Shown here piece by piece: positions 2,484 to 53,169 of a stretch of DNA of 64,000 bases. The stretch is from Escherichia phage ECO07P3. The position numbers and the translations under genes are program-made. The number at the start of each line of letters is the position of its first letter. Position 1 is the stretch's first letter. The stretch is taken from the sequence record OP172786; one strand, given 5' to 3'. The notes beneath the pieces are model-generated. The model did not search any database. It was given only the letters and a program-made list of their open reading frames with translations, and was not told where the DNA came from.

Positions 2484-3443
2484 TCACTTCCACTGCATTT
2501 CGCATGCCAATTGAATGAAAAGATATGCTAAATGTAATTCCGTATTAGCCGCAATTCCATGATACTGGTTATTTTCACCAACAATTTCATACATACGAAT
2601 AATACTTTGCGGAGTTACGCGTGTATAAATTTCTTCGGCAAGTTTACCAACGAACCACGAATAATCAGCCGCATATTTTGGTGCTAAAGCTCTGAGTTGT
2701 TTAACATCTTTATTTTTGAGAGACTCAAGAACATCATCAATAGCACCACGATCGTTAGTAACCAGTGATAAAATACCAGCATCCAAAACACCTTTAGATG
2801 AATAACTATCGAGCTCACCAATAGTTTTACGAAAATCAGGAAAATTCTTTTTAACCAAAGCTGCTACAACTTTCATATCAGCTATAGCAATTCCTTCATG
2901 CTTACAGATTTCAGTCAATCGACGAATCATCTGCTTCATCATTTCAATTTTATCTTCATCGGTCGGTTGACCGAACGTAATAACTCGGCAGCGTGACTGA
3001 AGCGGTTTAATAATACCATCAATATTGTTAGCAGTAATAATAATACTACAGTTTGAACTATAAGCTTCCATAAAGGAACGAAGATGTCGCTGAGACTCTG
3101 CTAACCCTGAACGGTCAAATTCATCAATAACGATTACTTTTTGACGACCATCAAATGAAGCTGCACTAGCAAAATTAGTCAAAGGACCACGAACGAAATC
3201 AATTTTACAATCTGACCCATTCACAAACATCATATCAGCATTTACATCATGACACAATGCTTTTGCTACAGTTGTTTTACCTGTTCCTGGAGAAGGAGAA
3301 TGAAGAATAATATGTGGAATCTTACCTTTACTTGTAATAGATTTAAAGGTTTCTTTATCAAAGGCGGGAAGAATACATTCATCGATAGTAGATGGACGAT
3401 ATTTCTGTTCAAGAATGTGTTCTTTTTCATTTACAGTAATCAT
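2484..3443 (-). CDS. 44: clamp loader ATPase gp44
   Basis: Walker A GTGKTT and the SRC motif (LQSRCRV); track start is TTG, first ATG (3443) follows GAGGAAATT and gives 319 aa as in T4 gp44. Confidence 0.92.
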
Positions 3444-3478
3444 AATTTCCTCATTCAAGTTTTAGTGTAAATTATAAA

Positions 3479-3490
3479 GGGCCGAAGCCC
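3479..3490 (-). terminator. UUCG-tetraloop hairpin (RNA GGGCUUCGGCCC), 45-44 intergenic
   Basis: Plus gggccgaagccc flanked by A/T runs. Confidence 0.6.
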
Positions 3491-3494
3491 TTTA

Positions 3495-4181
3495 TTAAAA
3501 ATCGTGGGTAGAATCAGCTTCAAGAGCTACTACATAATTCGCATGTTCACCTTCAAATTTAGCAGCACCTTGTTTACCTTTTGCCCAGAGCAGAAGTTTA
3601 TAATTTCCTGGTTGCATTTTCATATTTGCCATATTGATAATGAAATTAAATGTATTTTCACCATCATAATCACCAAGAGTCAAAGAATATTTAACACGGG
3701 TCAAAGCAGAATCTTCCACTTTATTAAAACCATTAATTACGATTTTACCTTCTTTTACTGTGATAGCAATTGTATCAATCTGCAGACCACGAGATACACG
3801 CAACAGCTGTTGAAGGTCTTCAGCTTTAATTTCAGTAACAACAGATGCTACCGGGAATGGAATTGGTTTATTAGGAGCAACTACTGTACTCGGATCGGCT
3901 GCTGGCCAAAAAATTGTTGAACGGGCATCAGCAATTTTAATATTACCATCTTCTGACTGGGAAATTTCTGCATCATCATTAACGAGAGACAGAATACCAA
4001 GAAAACCGTTCAAATCGTAAATCGCTACATCAAAATCAATAGTGTCAGAAATATTTGCTTCCGCATAAGTTGTACCATTAACCGCGCGAGTCATAATAAA
4101 TTGACCAGATTTAAGCATAATACCAGAGTTAATAGTAGCGAAATTTTTGAGCAGAGCAGTAGTATCTTTAGACAGTTTCAT
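3495..4181 (-). CDS. 45: sliding clamp gp45
   Basis: 228-aa ORF MKLSKDTTALLKNFATINSGIMLKSGQFIMTRAVNGTTYAEANISDTIDFDVAIYDLNGFLG... matches remembered T4 gp45; ATG at 4181. Confidence 0.94.
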   Translation of the reverse strand: MKLSKDTTALLKNFATINSGIMLKSGQFIMTRAVNGTTYAEANISDTIDFDVAIYDLNGFLGILSLVNDDAEISQSEDGNIKIADARSTIFWPAADPSTVVAPNKPIPFPVASVVTEIKAEDLQQLLRVSRGLQIDTIAITVKEGKIVINGFNKVEDSALTRVKYSLTLGDYDGENTFNFIINMANMKMQPGNYKLLLWAKGKQGAAKFEGEHANYVVALEADSTHDF

Positions 4182-4236
4182 GTAATTTCCTTCAATTCAA
4201 ATGAGATTTAATTTTATAACTAATTTAATAAAGCAA

Positions 4237-4626
4237 TTAACGATTAAAATCAGCAGCAATTGTTTCCGCAACAATTTGAGCAGCAACAATTAGACGTTCA
4301 TCTGCATTACCGCAATAACCATCTTCAAGGCGTTCACCACATGAAGTCATAATAAATTTAGCACCAGCATTTAGAGATTCTGCCGTATGTTTGCGCATCA
4401 GTTCAATCCATTTATCACTCACTTCACGATCGATAGCTTCATAATACGCATGACGAGCAGGTGCAGATTTAATTTTGCTCTGAATAACTTCCATTGCGTT
4501 ATCAGAAAGAGACAAAACCCATGCTCGACGAATTTTATTTTGGTTTTGTGGATTTGATTCAGAACGCACGTGTTTTGGCTGAATATCTTTTACATCAACA
4601 GTATAATTCACAGTAATTTTAGTCAT
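4237..4626 (-). CDS. rpbA: RNA polymerase-binding protein RpbA
   Basis: 129-aa ORF at the T4 rpbA position downstream of gene 45; same length as T4 RpbA. Confidence 0.75.
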
Positions 4627-4635
4627 AATACACCT

Positions 4636-4824
4636 TTAGTCATAATAATCAGTAACAGTCCAAGCTTCATTTCTGTTGGACATTATTTTCGTATATTCTG
4701 ATTTAAATGCATTCTTAAGCATAGATTCAGTAACTATATGCTCTTCATTAGAAAAATTATTTCTCAGAATATATCGTTTTATTTCAGGAATAGTTAATAG
4801 ATGCTGTCCAGTTGAATATTCCAT
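4636..4824 (-). CDS. hypothetical protein (T4 45.2 position)
   Basis: 62-aa ORF, ATG at 4824 after GGAGGAAAAAC. Confidence 0.55.
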   Translation of the reverse strand: MEYSTGQHLLTIPEIKRYILRNNFSNEEHIVTESMLKNAFKSEYTKIMSNRNEAWTVTDYYD

Positions 4825-4879
4825 GTTTTTCCTCCATAGAGATTATACTCTAATAAATTAAAGCATAATCTCTTATAAA

Positions 4880-6562
4880 TTAAACCATTACAGTAAATCG
4901 ACCAACTTTCTTCATTTGAAGATGCTGACCATATGCTTGCGGGTCATGGTCTCTGTGTGAAATAACAAAAACATTAGTATTTTTTAAACTATCTAAAATA
5001 GTTGAAATAGCTTTTACACCTTCAACATCAGTTGCTGAATCAAAAACTTCATCGAGAATTAGTGTGTTTATTTTAACACCTGAAACTTTTTCAGCAATAT
5101 CACGCCAAGTAAATAAAAGAGCAATATCAATTCGTGCTTTTTCACCTTGACTAAATGAAGCATAACTAAAATCTTCACGACCACGGGATTTAATTGTCTC
5201 ATTAAATTCTTCATCTAATGTAAACACATAATCCGCTTCCATTATTTTAAGATAATGGTTAATTTGCTTATTAAATAATGGAATGTACTTTTTAATAATA
5301 GCACCTTTAATACCAGAATCTTTGAGCATATCAGTCAAAATTCCTCTATGGTATTTTTCCATTACTAAATTAGTTTTTGTCTTAACAATTTTATCAAGTT
5401 CTTCTTGAAGCAGTGCTATTTCATCAGCATGGTCAATAAACTCAGATGATGCTTTTTCTATAGCCGCTTTAACTTTTTTAGCTTTATCTACCGTCGTGAT
5501 TAGAGATTGCTTTTTATTGCGAATATCATTCGCCAACGTCTGCTGGGTTTTAATATTATCTCGGTATTCGTCAACAAGAACTTTTAAATTATCACGATGT
5601 GTTGAAAGCTGTTCAAATGAATGCGTACATTCAGAAACTTTATCTTTAATTTTAGAAACAACTTTATCACCGGAACTTAATTGTGACAAACAGGTTGGAC
5701 ATAATCCACCTTCGTGATACATATTAATGACTTTATTATATGAGTCAATTTTTGATTTAATTAAAAATGCTTCTTGACCGATTTTATTAAATGCATCAGT
5801 CGGGTCTTCATCTAAAACAATATTAACTAATCTTTCATTAGCTTCTTCTATTTCCGATTTTAACGTTCTAGCTTCCTTCGCCAAATCATCATACATATTC
5901 TGTAGACGAGTAAGGTTATCACCAGTTAATTTTTTCTGGCGTTCAACGTTATCATTATATATTTTAATTTGCTGGATAATACTATCTTTTTTAACATCAA
6001 GCACTTGGTTTTGTGAATTTAATTCACGTATTAGTGCTTTATTAAGCTTATCCATTTCAGCTAATGTTCCTACCTCAAGCAGGTCTTCCACAAGCTTTCT
6101 TCGCGCAGGGGTCGACAAACCCATGAAAGGGGTATACCCTGCTGTACCAAGGACAACAATCTGCTTGAAACTGGCATATGACATTCCGATAAGCTGTTCA
6201 AATTCTGCTTGGAAATCTTTACTGCTGGCAGATTCATTAAGACGTGTACCGTTAACGGTGATTTCGAAAACGTTTGGTTTTTGTCCTCTTTTGATATAGT
6301 ACTTTTTCTCATCATATTCCATCCACAGTTCAACTAAAAGTTCTTTTTTATTTGTGCTGTTTATTAATTGACCTTTCTTTACATCACGAAATGGCTTGCC
6401 AAAAAGCCCAAATGTGATGGCTTCTAGCATAGTAGACTTACCACCGCCATTTCGTCCAGTAATAAGAGTTTTTTGAACCTTATCTAGTTGAATGTCAATA
6501 GGATTTCCACCTACTGACATTATATTTTGATACCTAACTCGATTTAGTTTAAAATTCTTCAC
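4880..6562 (-). CDS. 46: recombination nuclease subunit gp46 (Rad50/SbcC-like ATPase)
   Basis: 560-aa ORF with Walker A GRNGGGKST, long coiled coil, CPTC zinc hook and C-terminal ABC signature region; apparent GTG start at 6562 after AAGGA. Confidence 0.92.
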   Translation of the reverse strand: MKNFKLNRVRYQNIMSVGGNPIDIQLDKVQKTLITGRNGGGKSTMLEAITFGLFGKPFRDVKKGQLINSTNKKELLVELWMEYDEKKYYIKRGQKPNVFEITVNGTRLNESASSKDFQAEFEQLIGMSYASFKQIVVLGTAGYTPFMGLSTPARRKLVEDLLEVGTLAEMDKLNKALIRELNSQNQVLDVKKDSIIQQIKIYNDNVERQKKLTGDNLTRLQNMYDDLAKEARTLKSEIEEANERLVNIVLDEDPTDAFNKIGQEAFLIKSKIDSYNKVINMYHEGGLCPTCLSQLSSGDKVVSKIKDKVSECTHSFEQLSTHRDNLKVLVDEYRDNIKTQQTLANDIRNKKQSLITTVDKAKKVKAAIEKASSEFIDHADEIALLQEELDKIVKTKTNLVMEKYHRGILTDMLKDSGIKGAIIKKYIPLFNKQINHYLKIMEADYVFTLDEEFNETIKSRGREDFSYASFSQGEKARIDIALLFTWRDIAEKVSGVKINTLILDEVFDSATDVEGVKAISTILDSLKNTNVFVISHRDHDPQAYGQHLQMKKVGRFTVMV

Positions 6563-34154: not shown

Positions 34155-34484
34155 TCAATTAGAAAATAAATTTATCCAAGATTGTTCTTTAATTAAAAAT
34201 GGCTCAGAATCATATGCCATTAAACTTTGGGTGATTAGTCCTTTAAAAGGCCCATCAATAAATTCCATGGTAAAATATGGAATTTTATTCATTAATCTTG
34301 CATTAGGAGCAGTGCACAAAACTCTACATCCTTTGAATACGCCTTTTTGTAATTTGTATTGCTTAGGATAAAATTCGCTCAAGACGTTGTTATTTGCCAA
34401 AATTTCAAAATGATTCACCAATTTATTTTTAATAGTTTTTGGCGAAAAATAAAGATATTCGAAAAGTTGCGTATCTGTCATCAT
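34155..34484 (-). CDS. hypothetical protein
   Basis: Track ORF trimmed to the ATG at 34484, coupled to the upstream stop (ATGATGA). Confidence 0.45.
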   Translation of the reverse strand: MMTDTQLFEYLYFSPKTIKNKLVNHFEILANNNVLSEFYPKQYKLQKGVFKGCRVLCTAPNARLMNKIPYFTMEFIDGPFKGLITQSLMAYDSEPFLIKEQSWINLFSN

Positions 34485-35020
34485 TGCATTCCGATTACGA
34501 AAAACTGTGGACGAGTAATACCACCAGTACAGCATTTACTATTGCAGCAGTGTTGCACAGTTTCAATATGAATATCGTAAATTTTATCCATATCAGGAGA
34601 TTTAACAGGCTCATCGATTATATACAAAATTCGAGAAAGCGATAAACCTCTGAACTTGCTACCTCTATTACCAACAAAACTACGGACAGAATCGGTAAAT
34701 AAGCGGAATCGAATATCATCGCCAGAATAACGAGAAAATTCTTTTTTAATGTGGCCCGCAGAAATTTTAGCGTAAGCTGAAGTATTAGAAAGAACAATAA
34801 CTGTTCCACCATCATACAGCCAATTAGCAGCAAAGTTAGTCACAACAGTTGATTTACCAGATTGACGTCCACCATCTAGTCGAAGTGTGCAATACTGCTT
34901 AAGTAAGTCTTCAAATGGTGGGATATAATCGTTTTTACAAATTTCTTCTACTCTAGCATCAGAATGGTGTGTAAAAGCATTCATCAGGGATAGATAAGGA
35001 CCAGTTAAAAATGTTCTCAT
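34481..35020 (-). CDS. small P-loop NTPase with C-terminal cysteine cluster
   Basis: Walker A GGRQSGKST, Walker B-like ILYIIDEP, C-terminal HCCNSKCCTGG; start set at the ATG after GAGAGAATAAA (35020); track gives 35068. Confidence 0.5.
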   Translation of the reverse strand: MRTFLTGPYLSLMNAFTHHSDARVEEICKNDYIPPFEDLLKQYCTLRLDGGRQSGKSTVVTNFAANWLYDGGTVIVLSNTSAYAKISAGHIKKEFSRYSGDDIRFRLFTDSVRSFVGNRGSKFRGLSLSRILYIIDEPVKSPDMDKIYDIHIETVQHCCNSKCCTGGITRPQFFVIGMQ

Positions 35021-35176
35021 TTTATTCTCTCTAAATTTGGGCCATTCCATGGCGCATGAATTGTCCATTTCTGTATTTACCCATTACCGCACTTGGGCTC
35101 GACCTTATTACAGGTTGGCGGGAATCCCTCAGAATCATGAGGTCCAGCTTGTTCCCATGTTATTTGAATGTAAATA

Positions 35177-35194
35177 GGCCTAAGTATAGGCCTT
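35177..35194 (-). terminator. hairpin AGGCCT-AAGTAT-AGGCCT
   Basis: Inverted repeat immediately downstream of the 81-aa ORF stop. Confidence 0.4.
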
Positions 35195-35195
35195 A

Positions 35196-35441
35196 TTAAT
35201 TACCACGGGCTGCATTAGCAACGGCATAAGCGTACTGAACATTAGCGTCCTTAAACGTACCTTTAGAGGTATCTATTTCTGCCTTAAAGCCGCCTTTAGC
35301 CATAACATCAGCAAATTCTTTACGGAAGGCCATTGCATCAAGACCTTTCCATGATGATTTGTGCTTAGCGAATTCAAGACCAGCGTAGTTGACAGCTTTA
35401 GCCAATTTATTATCAATGACCCATTTACCGGCTTTAGGCAC
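35196..35441 (-). CDS. hypothetical protein (81 aa, GTG start) occupying the place of the denV 3' half
   Basis: ORF VPKAGKWVIDNKLAKAVNYAGLEF... with no similarity to the DenV C-terminus in any frame. Confidence 0.35.
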   Translation of the reverse strand: MPKAGKWVIDNKLAKAVNYAGLEFAKHKSSWKGLDAMAFRKEFADVMAKGGFKAEIDTSKGTFKDANVQYAYAVANAARGN

Positions 35442-35473
35442 AAACTTCGGGCCTTTTTGTTTAGAGAACAGTT

Positions 35474-35710
35474 TTAAATTCCAGCGATTAACTCGATTTG
35501 GCGTAAACGTAAAAATTCGAGTTTGTTGTAAAAGAATGTTACGTGGCCTGTGCCTAAGATAAATGTTGGAGAGATTTTAAAATCCTTTACACGTTTACCG
35601 TTTTGAACATGTTTACGGACTGCACCAAATACGCGTGGTAATTCACGATACTCAGCCATAAGATGTTGGTCGGTCAGTTCGGAAACGAGTGTTAAATTGA
35701 TACGAGTCAT
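35474..35710 (-). pseudogene. denV: denV (endonuclease V, pyrimidine-dimer glycosylase), 5' fragment only (about 78 codons)
   Basis: [76 protein letters not shown] matches remembered T4 DenV residues 1-74, then diverges and stops (GI*); T4 DenV is 138 aa. Confidence 0.6.
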
Positions 35711-35737
35711 AATTTCCTCCAAGTAGTTGATGAATGT

Positions 35738-35767
35738 ATAGTATCAAAACCCTTGGAGGAAGTAAAC
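35738..35767 (-). promoter_or_regulatory. T4-type early promoter (GTTTAC-N18-TACTAT) upstream of the denV fragment
   Basis: Minus strand GTTTAC TTCCTCCAAGGGTTTTGA TACTAT. Confidence 0.5.
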
Positions 35768-35769
35768 AA

Positions 35770-36051
35770 CTATTTTTCTGAAGCGCCTGAAATATATTTT
35801 TCAAGACGTTGTTTCATCAGCGAGCCGTTCTTAGCGATTTCTTCCGGTTTGTCGCACATACGCAACAAGGCTTCAAGCTTAACGATATCACTGGTGCGCT
35901 CAAATTTGCGAGTATCTATCTTACTAGCAAGTTCAGAAATACGTGCTAATAGACTTTCAGCTTCAACCAAAGCTGCACCTAGCTTAGTTGCAAATGTGTC
36001 AGTAGCTTCGTTAAGAATAGATTCTGATAAAAATTCACTATATGTTTTCAT
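35770..36051 (-). CDS. internal protein (IPII-like) with capsid-targeting sequence
   Basis: Start set at [10 protein letters not shown] (36051); the LSE tripeptide at residues 8-10 fits the prohead-protease cleavage pattern; position upstream of e as for T4 ipII/ipIII. Confidence 0.6.
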
Positions 36052-36536
36052 ATATACGCTTTCCAAGTTCCTGTTTTAAATGTTGAGATTACGCGTTTAG
36101 CGCGATTAGGTGTCTGACGGTACCATTTAGATTGGGCTAGATTTACTGCCGCTTCGTCCCAGCGTTTCTGTTGAAGCATACGAAGAGAATTAGTAAAACC
36201 AGCGACGCCTGCTACGCCCATTTGGAAGACCATATTGACCAACGCACATCGACGAACTGCATCTAAAGAATCATATACCGGTTTAAGTTTAGCATTACCC
36301 AAGATTCCGCGAACGGCTTTATCAACGTCTTCATTAAATAGCTTTTCAGCCTCATCAAGGGTAATTGTACCGTTGCATTTACGTCCGATCATTCTGTCAA
36401 GTTCAGCTTTAGCTACGGCTAAAGACGGGTTCTTTGTTACTAAATGGCCTATGCCAATCGTCCAAAAGCCTTCAGTGTCTTTGTATAAAGTCAGTCTAAG
36501 ACCTTCATCTATACGCAACATTTCAAATATATTCAT
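36048..36536 (-). CDS. e: endolysin (T4 lysozyme family)
   Basis: 162-aa [35 protein letters not shown]... with catalytic Glu11, Asp20 and Thr26 conserved; clearly homologous to T4 lysozyme but with many substitutions versus my recollection of it. Confidence 0.94.
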
Positions 36537-36572: not shown

Positions 36573-37013
36573 TTAAAAGAGGTTGTTCATTATTCGGTAA
36601 AGTGAAGAACCCATCACATATTGCCACTGAGTACGAGGAATAAGAGCAAAAGCATCCATCTCTGGAATCATAACGCCATCTTTATTTTCAAAATAAGACT
36701 CACAATGGCAATTTCTAAACATCTCATGCTCTACTGGAATCGTATAATAAAACAACTGTAAGTCTTTATTACTAGAATATTTAAATACACCTAGGTCTTC
36801 TAGAAGGTCTGGATTATAATTGCTAAAACCGGTCTCTTCTAAGCATTCTCTTCGTGCTGCATCTAGTGCGCTCAAATCAGAATTTTCTACACGGCCTTTT
36901 GGAATATCCCAGCGATGTGCCATCATTCCAGGCTTACGAGAACCAGTAACTCGTCCCATAAATAAATCTTTATCTTCTGTCATAAAGATAATACCAGCTG
37001 ATAGTGTTTTCAT
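36573..37013 (-). CDS. nudE: Nudix hydrolase NudE
   Basis: Nudix box GRVENSDLSALDAARRECLEETG; start set at the ATG after AGGAAA (37013); track gives 37028. Confidence 0.85.
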   Translation of the reverse strand: MKTLSAGIIFMTEDKDLFMGRVTGSRKPGMMAHRWDIPKGRVENSDLSALDAARRECLEETGFSNYNPDLLEDLGVFKYSSNKDLQLFYYTIPVEHEMFRNCHCESYFENKDGVMIPEMDAFALIPRTQWQYVMGSSLYRIMNNLF

Positions 37014-37498
37014 TTTAATTTCCTGCATTCAGTGATAAAGTTATTTAAATTTTGAGCATATTTCTTTTCATCAAAAATCTTTTGCTGCCTACGTAAACGC
37101 CATGGCATTTCAATGAACACGCACCATATTCCTGATAGTACTGCTGCTGTAAAAATATTAACAAGTATGATTAAAAGAATCCAATCTCCCGTTCTGCCTA
37201 CTGGACTTTCTCCAAAGAAGCAAAATACAAATGATGTCACAGGAAAACTAATAATATACCACAGAATCATAATCTTATCTGTGAACCAATCAGCGTTCGT
37301 TAATTTAGCGCGACCATTATGAATACACACGAATTTATCATCTGTTGCAGTAGATGGCTTAACTGGTTGATATCCCATTCTAAACTCCCTAATCAGCAAA
37401 TTTTTCATATCTTCGGAACAGCCATTCCAGTCAACTCTATCAACTGAAATGCCATCGTCCCCATCATCTAAATCATACCAGCGAGTTTTTAAAATCAT
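37010..37498 (-). CDS. membrane protein
   Basis: 162-aa ORF with several hydrophobic segments. Confidence 0.5.
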   Translation of the reverse strand: MILKTRWYDLDDGDDGISVDRVDWNGCSEDMKNLLIREFRMGYQPVKPSTATDDKFVCIHNGRAKLTNADWFTDKIMILWYIISFPVTSFVFCFFGESPVGRTGDWILLIILVNIFTAAVLSGIWCVFIEMPWRLRRQQKIFDEKKYAQNLNNFITECRKLK

Positions 37499-41841: not shown

Positions 41842-41917
41842 TGGTCGAGGCAGTAGGGATCGAACCTACGACCTAGGACTTAGAAGGTCCTTGCTCTTCC
41901 TTCTGAGCTATGCCCCG
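41842..41917 (-). tRNA. tRNA-Arg (anticodon UCU)
   Basis: 76 nt incl. CCA; manual cloverleaf: acceptor CGGGGCA/UGCCUCG, D-stem GCUC/GAGC, anticodon loop CUUCUAA, T-arm GUAGG-UUCGAUC-CCUAC. Confidence 0.85.
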
Positions 41918-41921
41918 TAAT

Positions 41922-41997
41922 TGGGGTGACCGATGGGAGTCGAACCCATGACTACGAGAATCACAATCTCGAGTTCTACCAACTGAACTACGGCCAC
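41922..41997 (-). tRNA. tRNA-His (anticodon GUG)
   Basis: 76 nt incl. CCA; acceptor GUGGCCG/CGGUCAC, discriminator C73, anticodon loop UUGUGAU, T-arm AUGGG-UUCGACU-CCCAU; no encoded G-1. Confidence 0.75.
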
Positions 41998-42111
41998 ATT
42001 AATACCTACTCCAACAATCAAGATGTCTTCACACGAAATTAAGAGAAGAGTGATCAGTTCAACCCCGATAATCGCGTCAAGTAGATATTAATGTGACAAT
42101 TGTCACAAATT

Positions 42112-42186
42112 TGGCGGACGTGATAGGATTCGAACCTATAACCAATCGCTTAACAGGCGATCGCTCTGCCATTGAGCTACACATCC
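42112..42186 (-). tRNA. tRNA-Asn (anticodon GUU)
   Basis: 75 nt incl. CCA; acceptor GGAUGUG/CACGUCC, anticodon stem AUCGC/GCGAU with loop CUGUUAA, T-arm AUAGG-UUCGAAU-CCUAU. Confidence 0.8.
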
Positions 42187-42190
42187 AAAT

Positions 42191-42277
42191 TGGTGGGGAG
42201 TGATGGAGTCGAACCACCCGAGTCGCAATGACAATGGATTTACAGTCCACACCGCTACCTCTACGGGATAACTCCCC
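42191..42277 (-). tRNA. tRNA-Tyr (anticodon GUA), long variable arm
   Basis: 87 nt incl. CCA; acceptor GGGGAGU/ACUCCCC, anticodon stem GUGGA/UCCAU with loop CUGUAAA, long variable arm, T-arm GGUGG-UUCGACU-CCAUC. Confidence 0.7.
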
Positions 42278-42290
42278 TTAATTCTTAATT

Positions 42291-42365
42291 TGGTGGCCCT
42301 GGGTGGAATTGAACCACCATCTGGCGATTATGAGTCGCTTGCTTGAACCTTCCAGCTACAGGGCC
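42291..42365 (-). tRNA. tRNA with CAU anticodon (Ile-type as in T4, or Met)
   Basis: 75 nt incl. CCA; acceptor GGCCCUG/CAGGGCC, anticodon loop CUCAUAA, T-arm GGUGG-UUCAAUU-CCACC. Confidence 0.75.
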
Positions 42366-42366
42366 T

Positions 42367-42442
42367 TGGTGCTGATTGACGGAATCGAACCGCCGACATC
42401 CTCATTACAAGTGAGTTGCTCTACCTACTGAGCTAAATCAGC
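42367..42442 (-). tRNA. tRNA-Thr (anticodon UGU)
   Basis: 76 nt incl. CCA; acceptor GCUGAUU/AAUCAGC, anticodon loop CUUGUAA, T-arm GGCGG-UUCGAUU-CCGUC. Confidence 0.85.
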
Positions 42443-42447
42443 AAAAC

Positions 42448-42537
42448 TGGCGGAGGCGATAGGATTTGAACCTATGAGTCGCCGGAGCGACTGCCGGTTT
42501 TCAAGACCGGTGCATTAAACCACTCTGCCACGCCTCC
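42448..42537 (-). tRNA. tRNA-Ser (anticodon UGA), long variable arm
   Basis: 90 nt; sequence GGAGGCGUGGCAGAGUGGUUUAAUGCACCGGUCUUGAAAACCGG... with anticodon loop CUUGAAA and T-arm AUAGG-UUCAAAU-CCUAU. Confidence 0.85.
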
Positions 42538-42539
42538 AG

Positions 42540-42613
42540 TCTCCATACAAGGATTTGAACCTTGGGCCTCCTGATCCCAAATCAGGCGCTCTACCAAACT
42601 GAGCTACACGGAG
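42540..42613 (-). tRNA. tRNA-Pro (anticodon UGG), CCA not encoded
   Basis: Acceptor CUCCGUG/UAUGGAG, anticodon loop UUUGGGA, T-arm CAAGG-UUCAAAU-CCUUG; abuts tRNA-Ser as in the T4 Pro-Ser dimeric precursor. Confidence 0.85.
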
Positions 42614-42623
42614 TAAATTAAAT

Positions 42624-42697
<74 letters not shown>

Positions 42698-42702
42698 AAA
42701 TT

Positions 42703-42789
42703 TGGTGCGAGAAGTGGGACTCGAACCCACAAGGAAATCATTCCGCAGCATTTTAAGTGCTGTGCCTTTACCAATTTGACCATTCTCGC
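42703..42789 (-). tRNA. tRNA-Leu (anticodon UAA), long variable arm
   Basis: 87 nt incl. CCA; acceptor GCGAGAA/UUCUCGC, anticodon stem CAGCA/UGCUG with loop CUUAAAA, T-arm GUGGG-UUCGAGU-CCCAC. Confidence 0.85.
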
Positions 42790-42790
42790 G

Positions 42791-42863
42791 CTGGGAATAA
42801 AGGACTCGAACCTTTGCATCCTGGAATCAAAATCCAGTGCCTTACCAACTTGGCTAATTCCCA
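42791..42863 (-). tRNA. tRNA-Gln (anticodon UUG), CCA not encoded
   Basis: Acceptor UGGGAAU/AUUCCCA, anticodon loop UUUUGAU, T-arm AAAGG-UUCGAGU-CCUUU; 1 nt from tRNA-Leu as in the T4 Gln-Leu precursor. Confidence 0.85.
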
Positions 42864-43911: not shown

Positions 43912-44220
43912 CTATTTTATTCCGCGTGATGCAATTGTGTTCTGCCGTTTAACACCAGTTTGTTTAAAGTCATGATTGTCGATTTGATCGGTACGAGCAA
44001 CACCGAATGATGATTTAATCTTAGCTTTAGATCCTTTAGTTATAGAAATAAACATCTCGGAAGCCCCTTTCTTAAAGTCCGAGGCGATTACTTCAACGCC
44101 GTTCTTAGCAAGTGACCTCAGAATTGCCTCCGCGTACTCATCATCAAGACTCGCCTGAGTATTAATAACGAATGTCTTTGGTGCAGCCGCTTCATTGATA
44201 AATTCTTGATATGTTTTCAT
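43912..44220 (-). CDS. internal protein (IPI-position) with capsid-targeting sequence
   Basis: Start set at MKTYQEFINE (44220); INE tripeptide at residues 8-10; track ORF begins 4 codons upstream. Confidence 0.6.
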   Translation of the reverse strand: MKTYQEFINEAAAPKTFVINTQASLDDEYAEAILRSLAKNGVEVIASDFKKGASEMFISITKGSKAKIKSSFGVARTDQIDNHDFKQTGVKRQNTIASRGIK

Positions 44221-44254
44221 TTTGATTTCCATTTAGTTTTGTTTTGATAGGGTA

Positions 44255-44284
44255 ATAGTATCACAACTAAACCACCGTGTAAAC
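44255..44284 (-). promoter_or_regulatory. T4-type early promoter (GTTTAC-N18-TACTAT)
   Basis: Minus strand GTTTAC ACGGTGGTTTAGTTGTGA TACTAT. Confidence 0.55.
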
Positions 44285-44287
44285 AAT

Positions 44288-44560
44288 TTATTTTAAATAA
44301 ATTGCATATTTTTTATAACCAGCCGTCTCGTGACGCAGACCTTTTTCATTAGCAAAGCGTTCAATATTATTAATTTGATTCTGATCAAGTTCTGAAATAT
44401 CAAATACAAAAAAGTTTCGTTTATTTCCTAACGTTACATGATTCGTCAAATCAATGTTATAAAGATGATTTATATTATCAATCATAGTCTTAACAGATTT
44501 GCTAATTTTTACTTCTTCATTAAGAGCAGATTCAACGATAAACTCTTTGAAAGTTTTCAT
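44288..44560 (-). CDS. internal-protein-like protein with capsid-targeting sequence
   Basis: MKTFKEFIVESAL... with IVE at residues 8-10; ATG after TAGGAAAATAAA. Confidence 0.55.
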   Translation of the reverse strand: MKTFKEFIVESALNEEVKISKSVKTMIDNINHLYNIDLTNHVTLGNKRNFFVFDISELDQNQINNIERFANEKGLRHETAGYKKYAIYLK

Positions 44561-44580
44561 TTTATTTTCCTAATTAATTT

Positions 44581-44620
44581 TGATGAGGTAATAGTATCAC
44601 TACCTCATCAACGTGTAAAC
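44581..44620 (-). promoter_or_regulatory. T4-type early promoter (GTTTAC-N18-TACTAT) whose -10 sits between a perfect 10-bp inverted repeat
   Basis: Plus tgatgaggta-atagtatcac-tacctcatca, then gtaaac at 44615-44620. Confidence 0.55.
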
Positions 44621-51186: not shown

Positions 51187-53169
51187 ATGGCAAATACCCC
51201 TGTAAATTATCAATTAACAAGAACAGCAAATGCTATTCCCGAGATATTCGTCGGGGGCACATTTGCTGAAATAAAACAAAACCTCATTGAATGGCTTAAT
51301 GGCCAAAATGAATTTTTGGATTATGATTTTGAAGGCTCAAGATTAAACGTTCTGTGTGACCTTTTGGCTTATAATACGCTGTACATTCAGCAGTTTGGTA
51401 ATGCTGCCTTGTATGAAAGCTTTATGCGTACTGCTAACTTACGTAGTTCAGTAGTTCAAGCTGCACAAGATAATGGATATTTACCTACTTCAAAATCAGC
51501 TGCTCAAACTGAAATTATGCTAACTTGTACAGATGCATTGAATAGAAATTACATTACTATTCCTCGTGGTACTCGCTTTTTAGCATATGCAAAGGATACT
51601 TCCGTTAATCCTTACAACTTTGTATCTACCGAAGATGTTATTGCTATTCGCGATAAAAATAACCAATATTTTCCACGTTTAAAATTGGCCCAGGGACGTA
51701 TAGTAAGAACTGAAATCATTTATGATAAATTAACACCTATTATCATTTATGACAAAAATATTGATAGAAACCAGGTTAAATTATATGTTGATGGAGCGGA
51801 ATGGATTAACTGGACAAGAAAGTCAATGGTTCATGCTGGTTCTACATCAACAATTTACTACATGCGTGAAACTATTGATGGAAATACTGAGTTTTATTTT
51901 GGTGAAGGTGAGATTTCTGTTAATGCGGCAGAAGGAGCATTGACTGCTAATTATATTGGGGGTCTTAAACCTACCCAGAACTCTACGATTGTTATTGAGT
52001 ACATCAGTACTAACGGCGCAGATGCGAATGGCGCAGTCGGATTTTCATATGCAGATACATTGACAAATATAACTGTCATCAACATTAATGAAAATCCAAA
52101 CGATGACCCAGATTTTGTTGGGGCAGATGGCGGCGGCGATCCAGAAGATATTGAACGTATTCGCGAATTGGGTACTATTAAACGCGAAACCCAGCAACGC
52201 TGCGTAACTGCGACTGACTATGATACATTCGTTTCAGAGAGATTTGGTTCTATTATTCAAGCCGTTCAGACTTTCACTGATTCTACTAAACCTGGTTATG
52301 CATTTATTGCTGCTAAACCTAAATCAGGATTGTATTTAACTACTGTACAGCGCGAAGATATTAAAAATTATCTCAAAGACTATAATTTAGCTCCTATTAC
52401 GCCATCAATTATTTCTCCTAATTATCTTTTTATTAAGACTAATTTAAAAGTCACATATGCTTTAAATAAGCTACAAGAATCCGAACAGTGGCTTGAAGGT
52501 CAAATAATTGATAAAATTGACCGCTATTATACTGAAGATGTAGAAATTTTTAACTCGTCTTTTGCCAAGTCTAAGATGTTAACTTATGTAGATGATGCAG
52601 ATCATTCTATCATTGGTTCATCAGCGACTATTCAAATGGTTCGTGAAGTACAAAACTTCTATAAAACGCCTGAAGCAGGTATTAAATACAATAATCAAAT
52701 AAAAGATCGTTCTATGGAATCTAATACGTTTTCATTTAATTCTGGACGAAAGGTTGTGAATCCTGATACTGGTTTAGAAGAAGATGTATTATATGACGTT
52801 CGCATAGTATCAACAGACCGAGATTCTAAAGGAATTGGTAAAGTTATTATTGGTCCATTTGCTTCTGGCGATGTTACAGAAAATGAAAACATTCAGCCGT
52901 ATACAGGCAACGATTTTAACAAATTAGCAAATTCTGATGGACGCGACAAATACTATGTTATCGGTGAAATAAATTATCCAGCTGATGTGATTTATTGGAA
53001 TATCGCTAAAATTAATTTAACATCTGAAAAATTTGAAGTTCAGACCATCGAATTATATTCTGACCCAACCGATGATGTTATCTTTACTCGCGATGGTTCA
53101 CTGATTGTATTTGAAAATGACTTACGTCCACAATACTTAACTATCGATTTGGAGCCTATATCACAATGA
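51187..53169 (+). CDS. 6: baseplate wedge protein gp6
   Basis: 660-aa ORF; same length and position as T4 gp6. Confidence 0.92.
   Translation: MANTPVNYQLTRTANAIPEIFVGGTFAEIKQNLIEWLNGQNEFLDYDFEGSRLNVLCDLLAYNTLYIQQFGNAALYESFMRTANLRSSVVQAAQDNGYLPTSKSAAQTEIMLTCTDALNRNYITIPRGTRFLAYAKDTSVNPYNFVSTEDVIAIRDKNNQYFPRLKLAQGRIVRTEIIYDKLTPIIIYDKNIDRNQVKLYVDGAEWINWTRKSMVHAGSTSTIYYMRETIDGNTEFYFGEGEISVNAAEGALTANYIGGLKPTQNSTIVIEYISTNGADANGAVGFSYADTLTNITVININENPNDDPDFVGADGGGDPEDIERIRELGTIKRETQQRCVTATDYDTFVSERFGSIIQAVQTFTDSTKPGYAFIAAKPKSGLYLTTVQREDIKNYLKDYNLAPITPSIISPNYLFIKTNLKVTYALNKLQESEQWLEGQIIDKIDRYYTEDVEIFNSSFAKSKMLTYVDDADHSIIGSSATIQMVREVQNFYKTPEAGIKYNNQIKDRSMESNTFSFNSGRKVVNPDTGLEEDVLYDVRIVSTDRDSKGIGKVIIGPFASGDVTENENIQPYTGNDFNKLANSDGRDKYYVIGEINYPADVIYWNIAKINLTSEKFEVQTIELYSDPTDDVIFTRDGSLIVFENDLRPQYLTIDLEPISQ

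Follow-up and report, generated by a model that had tools for sequence, protein, structure and literature searches.

The early region of Escherichia phage ECO07P3 (sequence record OP172786), a T4-like (Tequatrovirus) phage, very probably bears the scar of a single microhomology-mediated deletion of about 0.81 kb on the minus strand. This deletion, which affects dispensable genes, would have truncated denV, removed one internal protein (IP) gene and beheaded ipIII. We analysed a stretch of 64,000 nucleotides of this genome (the window), and coordinates below refer to it unless another sequence is named.

Organization of the locus

In transcription order, the minus strand carries nudE (37028..36573) first, then the lysozyme gene e (36536..36048) and, between e and the truncated endonuclease V gene (denV'), a gene for a 93-aa internal protein with a capsid-targeting start (36051..35770). 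The denV' frame, recognized by tblastn, Pfam, PDB and PHROGs comparisons, comprises 78 codons from ATG to TAA (35710..35474), and a strong Shine-Dalgarno sequence, GGAGG, lies directly 5' of its ATG at 35710. Further 5' is a minus-strand region (35738..35767, GTTTAC ... TACTAT) that matches the annotated 'promoter' feature at positions 1634-1663 of the phage Lutter locus (L001), as mapped through the coordinates of a pairwise BLAST alignment. A simple sigma-70 scan did not flag this promoter-equivalent region, and we regard it as putative on the basis of the Lutter annotation.

The deletion junction, with its single kept copy of TCGCTG, was placed at 35482..35487 (minus strand) by base-by-base comparison with relatives. 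It leads into a minus-strand remnant of ipIII, delimited by comparison with the ipIII genes of phages Lutter and GRNsp7, that consists of codons 97-192 plus the stop codon (35196..35486). Inside this remnant, BLASTP and PHROGs comparisons identified an 81-codon GTG ORF (35441..35196, minus strand). Directly 3' of the ipIII stop codon, on the same strand, stands an intrinsic-terminator-like hairpin (35176..35193; AGGCCTATACTTAGGCCT, then a T-rich tail), where the ipIII transcript natively ends. On the minus strand 3' of the hairpin come a homologue of vs.8, then vs.7 and a gene for a Gly-radical protein.

The vs.8 homologue (34481-35138, minus strand) occurs in ECO07P3 as two ORFs of different frames. 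Its N-terminal ORF (35138..35031, 35 aa) corresponds to residues 1-32 of T4 Vs.8, and the second (35068..34481, 195 aa) to Vs.8 residues 26-219. The same split was seen in ECO07P2 and GRNsp7, and vs.8 is a single ORF in T4 and ECO07P1. Elsewhere on the minus strand, 11 tRNA genes (Arg, His, Asn, Tyr, Met, Thr, Ser, Pro, Gly, Leu and Gln) are clustered at 41842-42863, more than the 8 tRNA genes of T4. A motif scan located three intact minus-strand genes for small proteins with a capsid-targeting start in the window (36051..35770, 44560..44288 and 44220..43912). ECO07P3 keeps several internal proteins, with at least three IP genes in the window that bear a capsid-targeting sequence (CTS), despite the loss of two.

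The truncated denV gene

The original prediction for this locus was that denV is cut to its 5' half, and every comparison agreed. The 78-codon ORF corresponds to T4 DenV residues 1-76 with 92% identity (tblastn), to residues 1-76 of the 138 in PDB 2END (E=3e-42) and to positions 1-76 of the 139 in phrog_1183 (E=6e-39), and it passes the Pfam family Pyr_excise (PF03013) with 40.3 bits against a cut-off of 23. About 74 matching residues followed by four divergent codons had been expected; the total of 78 was correct, but the split is 76 + 2, with codons 1-76 native and Ala76 followed by Gly-Ile and TAA from out-of-frame ipIII sequence. Thr2 and Glu23, both named in the same prediction, are present in the alignment with 2END, as are Arg3, Arg22 and Arg26, and the N-terminus aligns with 2END residue for residue. 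In endonuclease V the alpha-amino group of Thr2 and Glu23 are catalytic, and Arg3, Arg22 and Arg26 have roles as well.

A complete DenV domain has approximately 138 residues, of which denV' encodes only those at positions 1-76 of 138 (2END) or 139 (phrog_1183), and tblastn detected no DenV C-terminal half anywhere in the window. On these grounds denV', as judged from its sequence, is filed as a truncated pseudogene and not as a functional member of the endonuclease V family. From work on the 2END and 1VAS structures we assume that a 78-aa DenV fragment stops halfway through helix 2 and has neither helix 3 nor the C-terminal aromatic WYKYY segment, and that this segment is needed for dimer binding in endonuclease V. 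The denV' product is almost certainly non-functional.

One substitution in the fragment, D62N (35525-35527), is private to ECO07P3, as the residue is Asp in T4 and in every relative compared. It may reflect relaxed constraint once the gene was inactivated, or chance. The frequency of half-genes was surveyed by tblastn with the N-terminal and C-terminal halves of DenV in three phage groups, and the respective counts were nearly equal (463/468 in Escherichia, 64/64 in Shigella and 27/27 in Yersinia phages). Truncations of denV are therefore rare.

The 81-codon ORF as the 3' part of ipIII

The GTG ORF was originally described as lying in another frame than denV and as having no similarity to the DenV C-terminus. 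Both points hold: the ORF occupies the -1 frame with respect to denV, and the possibility that it is a diverged DenV C-terminus was ruled out by BLASTP (E=0.24). It had also been called unrelated sequence, which is not the case, as it equals residues 112-192 of IPIII. The 81-aa product is 94% identical to this part of T4 IPIII (BLASTP, E=7e-55), matches positions 112-192 of the 192 in phrog_5341 ('internal virion protein', E=2e-42) and is identical (100%) to the IPIII protein of phage Lutter. In the ipIII frame, homology begins at Arg97 (window position 35486), and the protein is identical to Lutter IPIII from there through to the stop codon. The number of non-synonymous differences between the remnant and the ipIII genes of Lutter or GRNsp7 is zero. 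The ORF gave no match to the local Pfam-A collection, and the identical 81-aa product on other contigs carries PF26861 (Phage_T4_IpIII) as a precomputed assignment.

The GTG start of the ORF is the Val112 codon of ipIII and the first possible start in the remnant; from the upstream stop codon at 35576 as far as the GTG, the ipIII frame contains no start codon. Because no good Shine-Dalgarno sequence precedes the GTG and there is no earlier in-frame start, the remnant is probably untranslated, or at best not efficiently translated. It is also without the ipIII start codon, ribosome-binding site, promoter and 10-residue CTS. The CTS motif (MKTYxEFIxE) belongs to the deleted codons 1-96, and a scan of the window found the motif only on three other genes and not on the ipIII remnant. 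The CTS directs the packaging of IPIII into the prohead, and gp21 cleaves it. For incorporation into the head, the first 10 residues are required (PMC9026906). Any product made from the remnant would consequently be expected not to enter the capsid. IP genes are non-essential, with the burst size of an IPIII mutant reported as ~40% of normal (PMC9026906).

Two metagenomic T4-like scaffolds from ENA (L009, positions 2501-2746, and L010, positions 2026-2271) have an intact denV, and the sole ipIII call in them is the identical 81-aa GTG ORF. The 5' part of ipIII is disrupted in these scaffolds too, whether by real disruption or by sequencing error, and L009 differs across approximately 100 nt near the ipIII start.

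Junction and extent of the deletion

Window positions 35000-35900 were used as a 901-bp megablast query against 50,697 phage records. Coverage of 80% or more of the query was reached by 52 records, in every case through two or three pieces that together spanned ~1.6-2.2 kb and not 0.9 kb. The denV' and ipIII pieces had 97-99% DNA identity to the genes of related phages, so the arrangement of the two ORFs is not due to chance.

Lutter and GRNsp7 are both annotated with the gene order e, a 93-aa IP, denV (137 aa), an IP of ~84 aa, ipIII (192 aa) and vs.8. ECO07P1 has the same genes plus ipII between ipIII and vs.8, and the gene order of T4 differs from that of the Lutter type. By pairwise BLAST, the minus strand of the window from 35900 to 35484 corresponds to positions 1501-1917 of the Lutter locus L001 (98% identity), and that from 35487 to 35000 corresponds to positions 2723-3212 (97%). 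A base-by-base check of the joint showed no unaccounted or inserted nucleotide; the flanks are colinear and are separated by one clean gap.

The joint was compared with denV and ipIII of Lutter, GRNsp7, JS09, ECO07P1 and T4. GRNsp7, JS09 and ECO07P1 have AATCGCTGAATGC on the denV side and CGTCGCTGGAATTT on the ipIII side, with 6 bp (TCGCTG) common to both; on the Lutter-type denV the microhomology shrinks to 4 bp (TCGC). The missing segment measures 806-809 bp, varying with the relative that is compared, and both the exact deleted length and the repeat length (6 or 4 bp) are taken from relatives that are 96-98% identical and not from the true parent. By our own approximate calculation, the chance that two randomly joined ends would share at least 6 bp is ~0.1%. 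The joint therefore displays what characterizes a microhomology deletion, namely colinear flanks without insertion and a short direct repeat of which one copy is left. The original prediction favoured sequence replacement over a simple frameshift; a simple frameshift is indeed not involved, but in place of a replacement there is one clean gap of this length at TCGCTG.

At the joint, denV nucleotide 227 is followed by ipIII nucleotide 291. The two frames differ by one, which brings a stop codon two codons past the joint. The deleted material comprises denV codons 77-137, the small IP gene together with spacers and a promoter, and the first 96 codons of ipIII, among them those for the 10-residue CTS. 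No second copy of the deleted segment was found in the window, where the blastn hits were limited to weak ones (~80%, 48-75 nt) at 44176-44584 and one of 14 nt at 52724-52737, and tblastn detected no second DenV or IPIII match in the window.

We propose that the parent locus was of the Lutter/GRNsp7 type, with e, the 93-aa IP gene, denV, the ~84-aa IP gene, ipIII and vs.8 in that order. One copy of TCGCTG would have been located in denV codons 75-77 and the other in ipIII codons 96-98, and illegitimate recombination or replication slippage between them would have caused the loss of ~0.81 kb. As the joint is out of frame, translation of denV would proceed two codons into ipIII and stop, yielding the 78-aa fragment, and the 3' half of ipIII would be left stranded without start codon, ribosome-binding site, promoter or CTS.

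A 120-mer spanning the junction was compared with the same 50,697 phage records, none of which covered more than 57% of it, and a 26-mer junction pattern gave no match in three contig collections (viral, metagenome and genome). Decay of the remnants is minimal, with no non-synonymous change in the ipIII part and one in the denV part, and the deletion therefore looks recent. Taken from these sequence comparisons, the deletion appears to be an independent and recent event.

Alternative explanations

That the junction was found in no other searched sequence, that T4 readily yields such deletions in the laboratory, and that the essentially undecayed remnants fit a very recent origin could all be accommodated if the deletion were an assembly or consensus error, or a variant swept during laboratory amplification, and not a feature of the wild phage. 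We consider this improbable. The 6 bp shared at the junction are far too short for an assembler to collapse as a repeat, and on either side the sequence is otherwise clean and colinear with that of relatives. The window also agrees exactly with the GenBank proteins WAX13406.1 and WAX13405.1, so that it reproduces the published assembly. The locus is also highly polymorphic among T-even phages, T4 and Lutter-type gene orders differ, and ECO07P2, a close relative, has a different CTS-type ORF at the position of denV; such variation would be in keeping with replacement of the denV 3' half by foreign or unrelated DNA, with a new GTG-start gene, in a T2/T6-like lineage. Against this, the supposedly new ORF consists of ipIII codons 112-192 and its protein is identical to that of relatives, every base at the junction is accounted for, and T2 and T6 are without denV and ipIII sequence at the locus. 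Replacement, refuted by the alignments with relatives, is extremely unlikely.

Several features of the locus bear on whether the remnants are functional new products, either a CTS-less IPIII fragment made by re-initiation at the GTG or a DenV(1-~70)-IPIII(97-192) fusion made by a -1 ribosomal slip. The GTG sits 32 nt past the denV' stop codon. With the putative promoter of denV and its ribosome-binding site still in place, transcription probably continues through the remnant as far as the native ipIII terminator. Relative to denV, ipIII is read in the -1 frame, which stays open from 35576, 30 codons upstream of the joint, and in the ECOR17 cytoplasm IPIII shows activity without its CTS (PMC9391042). 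However, a canonical slippery heptamer is missing, the GTG is not preceded by a good Shine-Dalgarno sequence, each protein is reduced to a half, the arrangement is conserved in no other genome searched, and the pattern is as expected from a random out-of-frame deletion. We give functional products almost no credence. Scarcely more plausible is that the deletion was selected and not neutral, for example because it offsets a gain of DNA elsewhere under the headful packaging limit or sheds an IP that sets off a defence of the isolation host, and that in addition a CTS-less 81-aa IPIII fragment with cytoplasmic anti-defence activity is produced from the transcript of denV. Our preferred explanation remains that dispensable genes were lost in a microhomology-mediated deletion, and the event is ordinary decay of such genes, of a kind known in T-even phages, with no new gene gained.

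Predicted phenotype and annotation

A deletion of this kind would strike UV repair and, at the same time, an injected protein with a suggested part in counter-defence, both of them accessory functions. The sensitivity of ECO07P3 to UV is predicted to be approximately two-fold higher, as in T4 v mutants, and its virions would be expected to contain no IPIII. IPIII, even without its CTS, is required for infection of ECOR17 (PMC9391042), and ECO07P3 would possibly fail on this and other hosts that need IPIII and have a narrower host range. A phage that is predicted to be UV-sensitive, with a possibly narrower host range, matters for therapy or for UV-exposed use.

In GenBank, the two ORFs, on an ECO07P3 contig of 166,565 bp, are named 'endonuclease V' (WAX13406.1, 78 aa) and 'internal protein III' (WAX13405.1, 81 aa). 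As both appear to be halves of one deletion scar, they should be marked as pseudogenes. The main value of the present analysis is correction and annotation, and it opens no new question.

Comparison with other phages and known deletions

T2 and T6 are classically more UV-sensitive than T4, and the original prediction took the state of denV to fit a T2/T6-like lineage. This assignment did not stand. The architecture of T2 and T6 is different: in T2 (AP018813) the interval consists of e, a gene for a 158-aa IP-like protein and a frameshifted vs.8, and in T6 (AP018814) e directly adjoins regB. By tblastn, neither DenV nor IPIII was found in the 14-kb stretches around e (58-72 kb) of T2 and T6, nor in T2 at 1-50 kb. 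The flanks in the ECO07P3 window are of the Lutter/GRNsp7 type, and the event is therefore independent of T2 and T6. A full-text literature search on the denV status of T2 and T6 gave nothing usable. Like ECO07P3, these phages are expected to have no functional DenV, and denV is dispensable in nature; unlike ECO07P3, which keeps the denV 5' half and the ipIII 3' half, they have no denV or ipIII sequence in the interval between e and vs.7/regB and a different gene order. In the T2 record (AP018813.1; L005, positions 3757-4400 and 4430-4903), vs.8 is broken into three frames and the 158-aa gene beside e, which has weak IPII-like similarity, is labelled 'valyl tRNA synthetase modifier'; many product names in this record look unreliable.

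The closest relative over 20 kb, ECO07P2 (OP172785.1, 97.4%), is without denV through yet another arrangement. Homology in ECO07P2 (L003, positions 3023-3512) ends approximately 20 nt into denV (window position 35690), where a 105-aa ORF with a CTS-like start is found. ECO07P2 and ECO07P3 were isolated on the same host strain.

The locus is prone to rearrangement and deletion, as seen in a T4-like contig and in a Mosigvirus. A 170-kb T4-like contig in the 'E. coli' assembly GCA_027337125.1 (ABJZEZ010000005.1; L011, positions 2501-2899, and also L012) has an independent deletion of 1265 bp that produces a 132-aa in-frame fusion of residues 1-31 of the 93-aa IP, with the CTS kept, to IPIII residues 93-192. 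It affects the locus deleted in ECO07P3, takes away denV and the small IP gene, and ends only four codons from the ECO07P3 breakpoint in ipIII. In contrast to ECO07P3, the deletion is 1265 bp long, is in frame and makes use of approximately 24 nt over which two IP genes match imperfectly. Because the fusion keeps the CTS, the C-terminal half of IPIII may still be packaged in that phage. Mosigvirus JS09 (KF582788.2; L007, positions 2637-2744) has a 36-codon remnant of the denV 5' end beside vs.8 at the T4-type position, annotated as similar to DenV of phage Pol, which is evidence that denV was once rearranged with respect to the IP genes. JS09 resembles ECO07P3 in having a denV 5' fragment left by rearrangement in the IP/denV region, but its remnant is shorter, and an intact denV is also present, so that function is retained.

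The nearest laboratory counterpart comes from the evolution of T4, in which deletions of 0.7-6 kb arose between short microhomologies (Srikant, Guegler & Laub 2022; PMC9391042). Microhomology recombination at 2-10 bp is cited in the same study, and ipIII was removed in three of the five evolved T4 lines (PMC9391042). Spontaneous losses designated 'vs.3-denV' and 'ipIII' were likewise reported during T4 genome reduction (PMC9825161). Unlike the deletions in evolved T4, that of ECO07P3 is found in the deposited genome of a sewage isolate, starts inside denV and has no known compensating amplification or driver. It is like them in its size, which falls in the 0.7-6 kb range, in its short repeat with one copy kept, in affecting ipIII and in involving only dispensable genes, and it would represent a natural example of the microhomology deletions known from laboratory evolution of T4.
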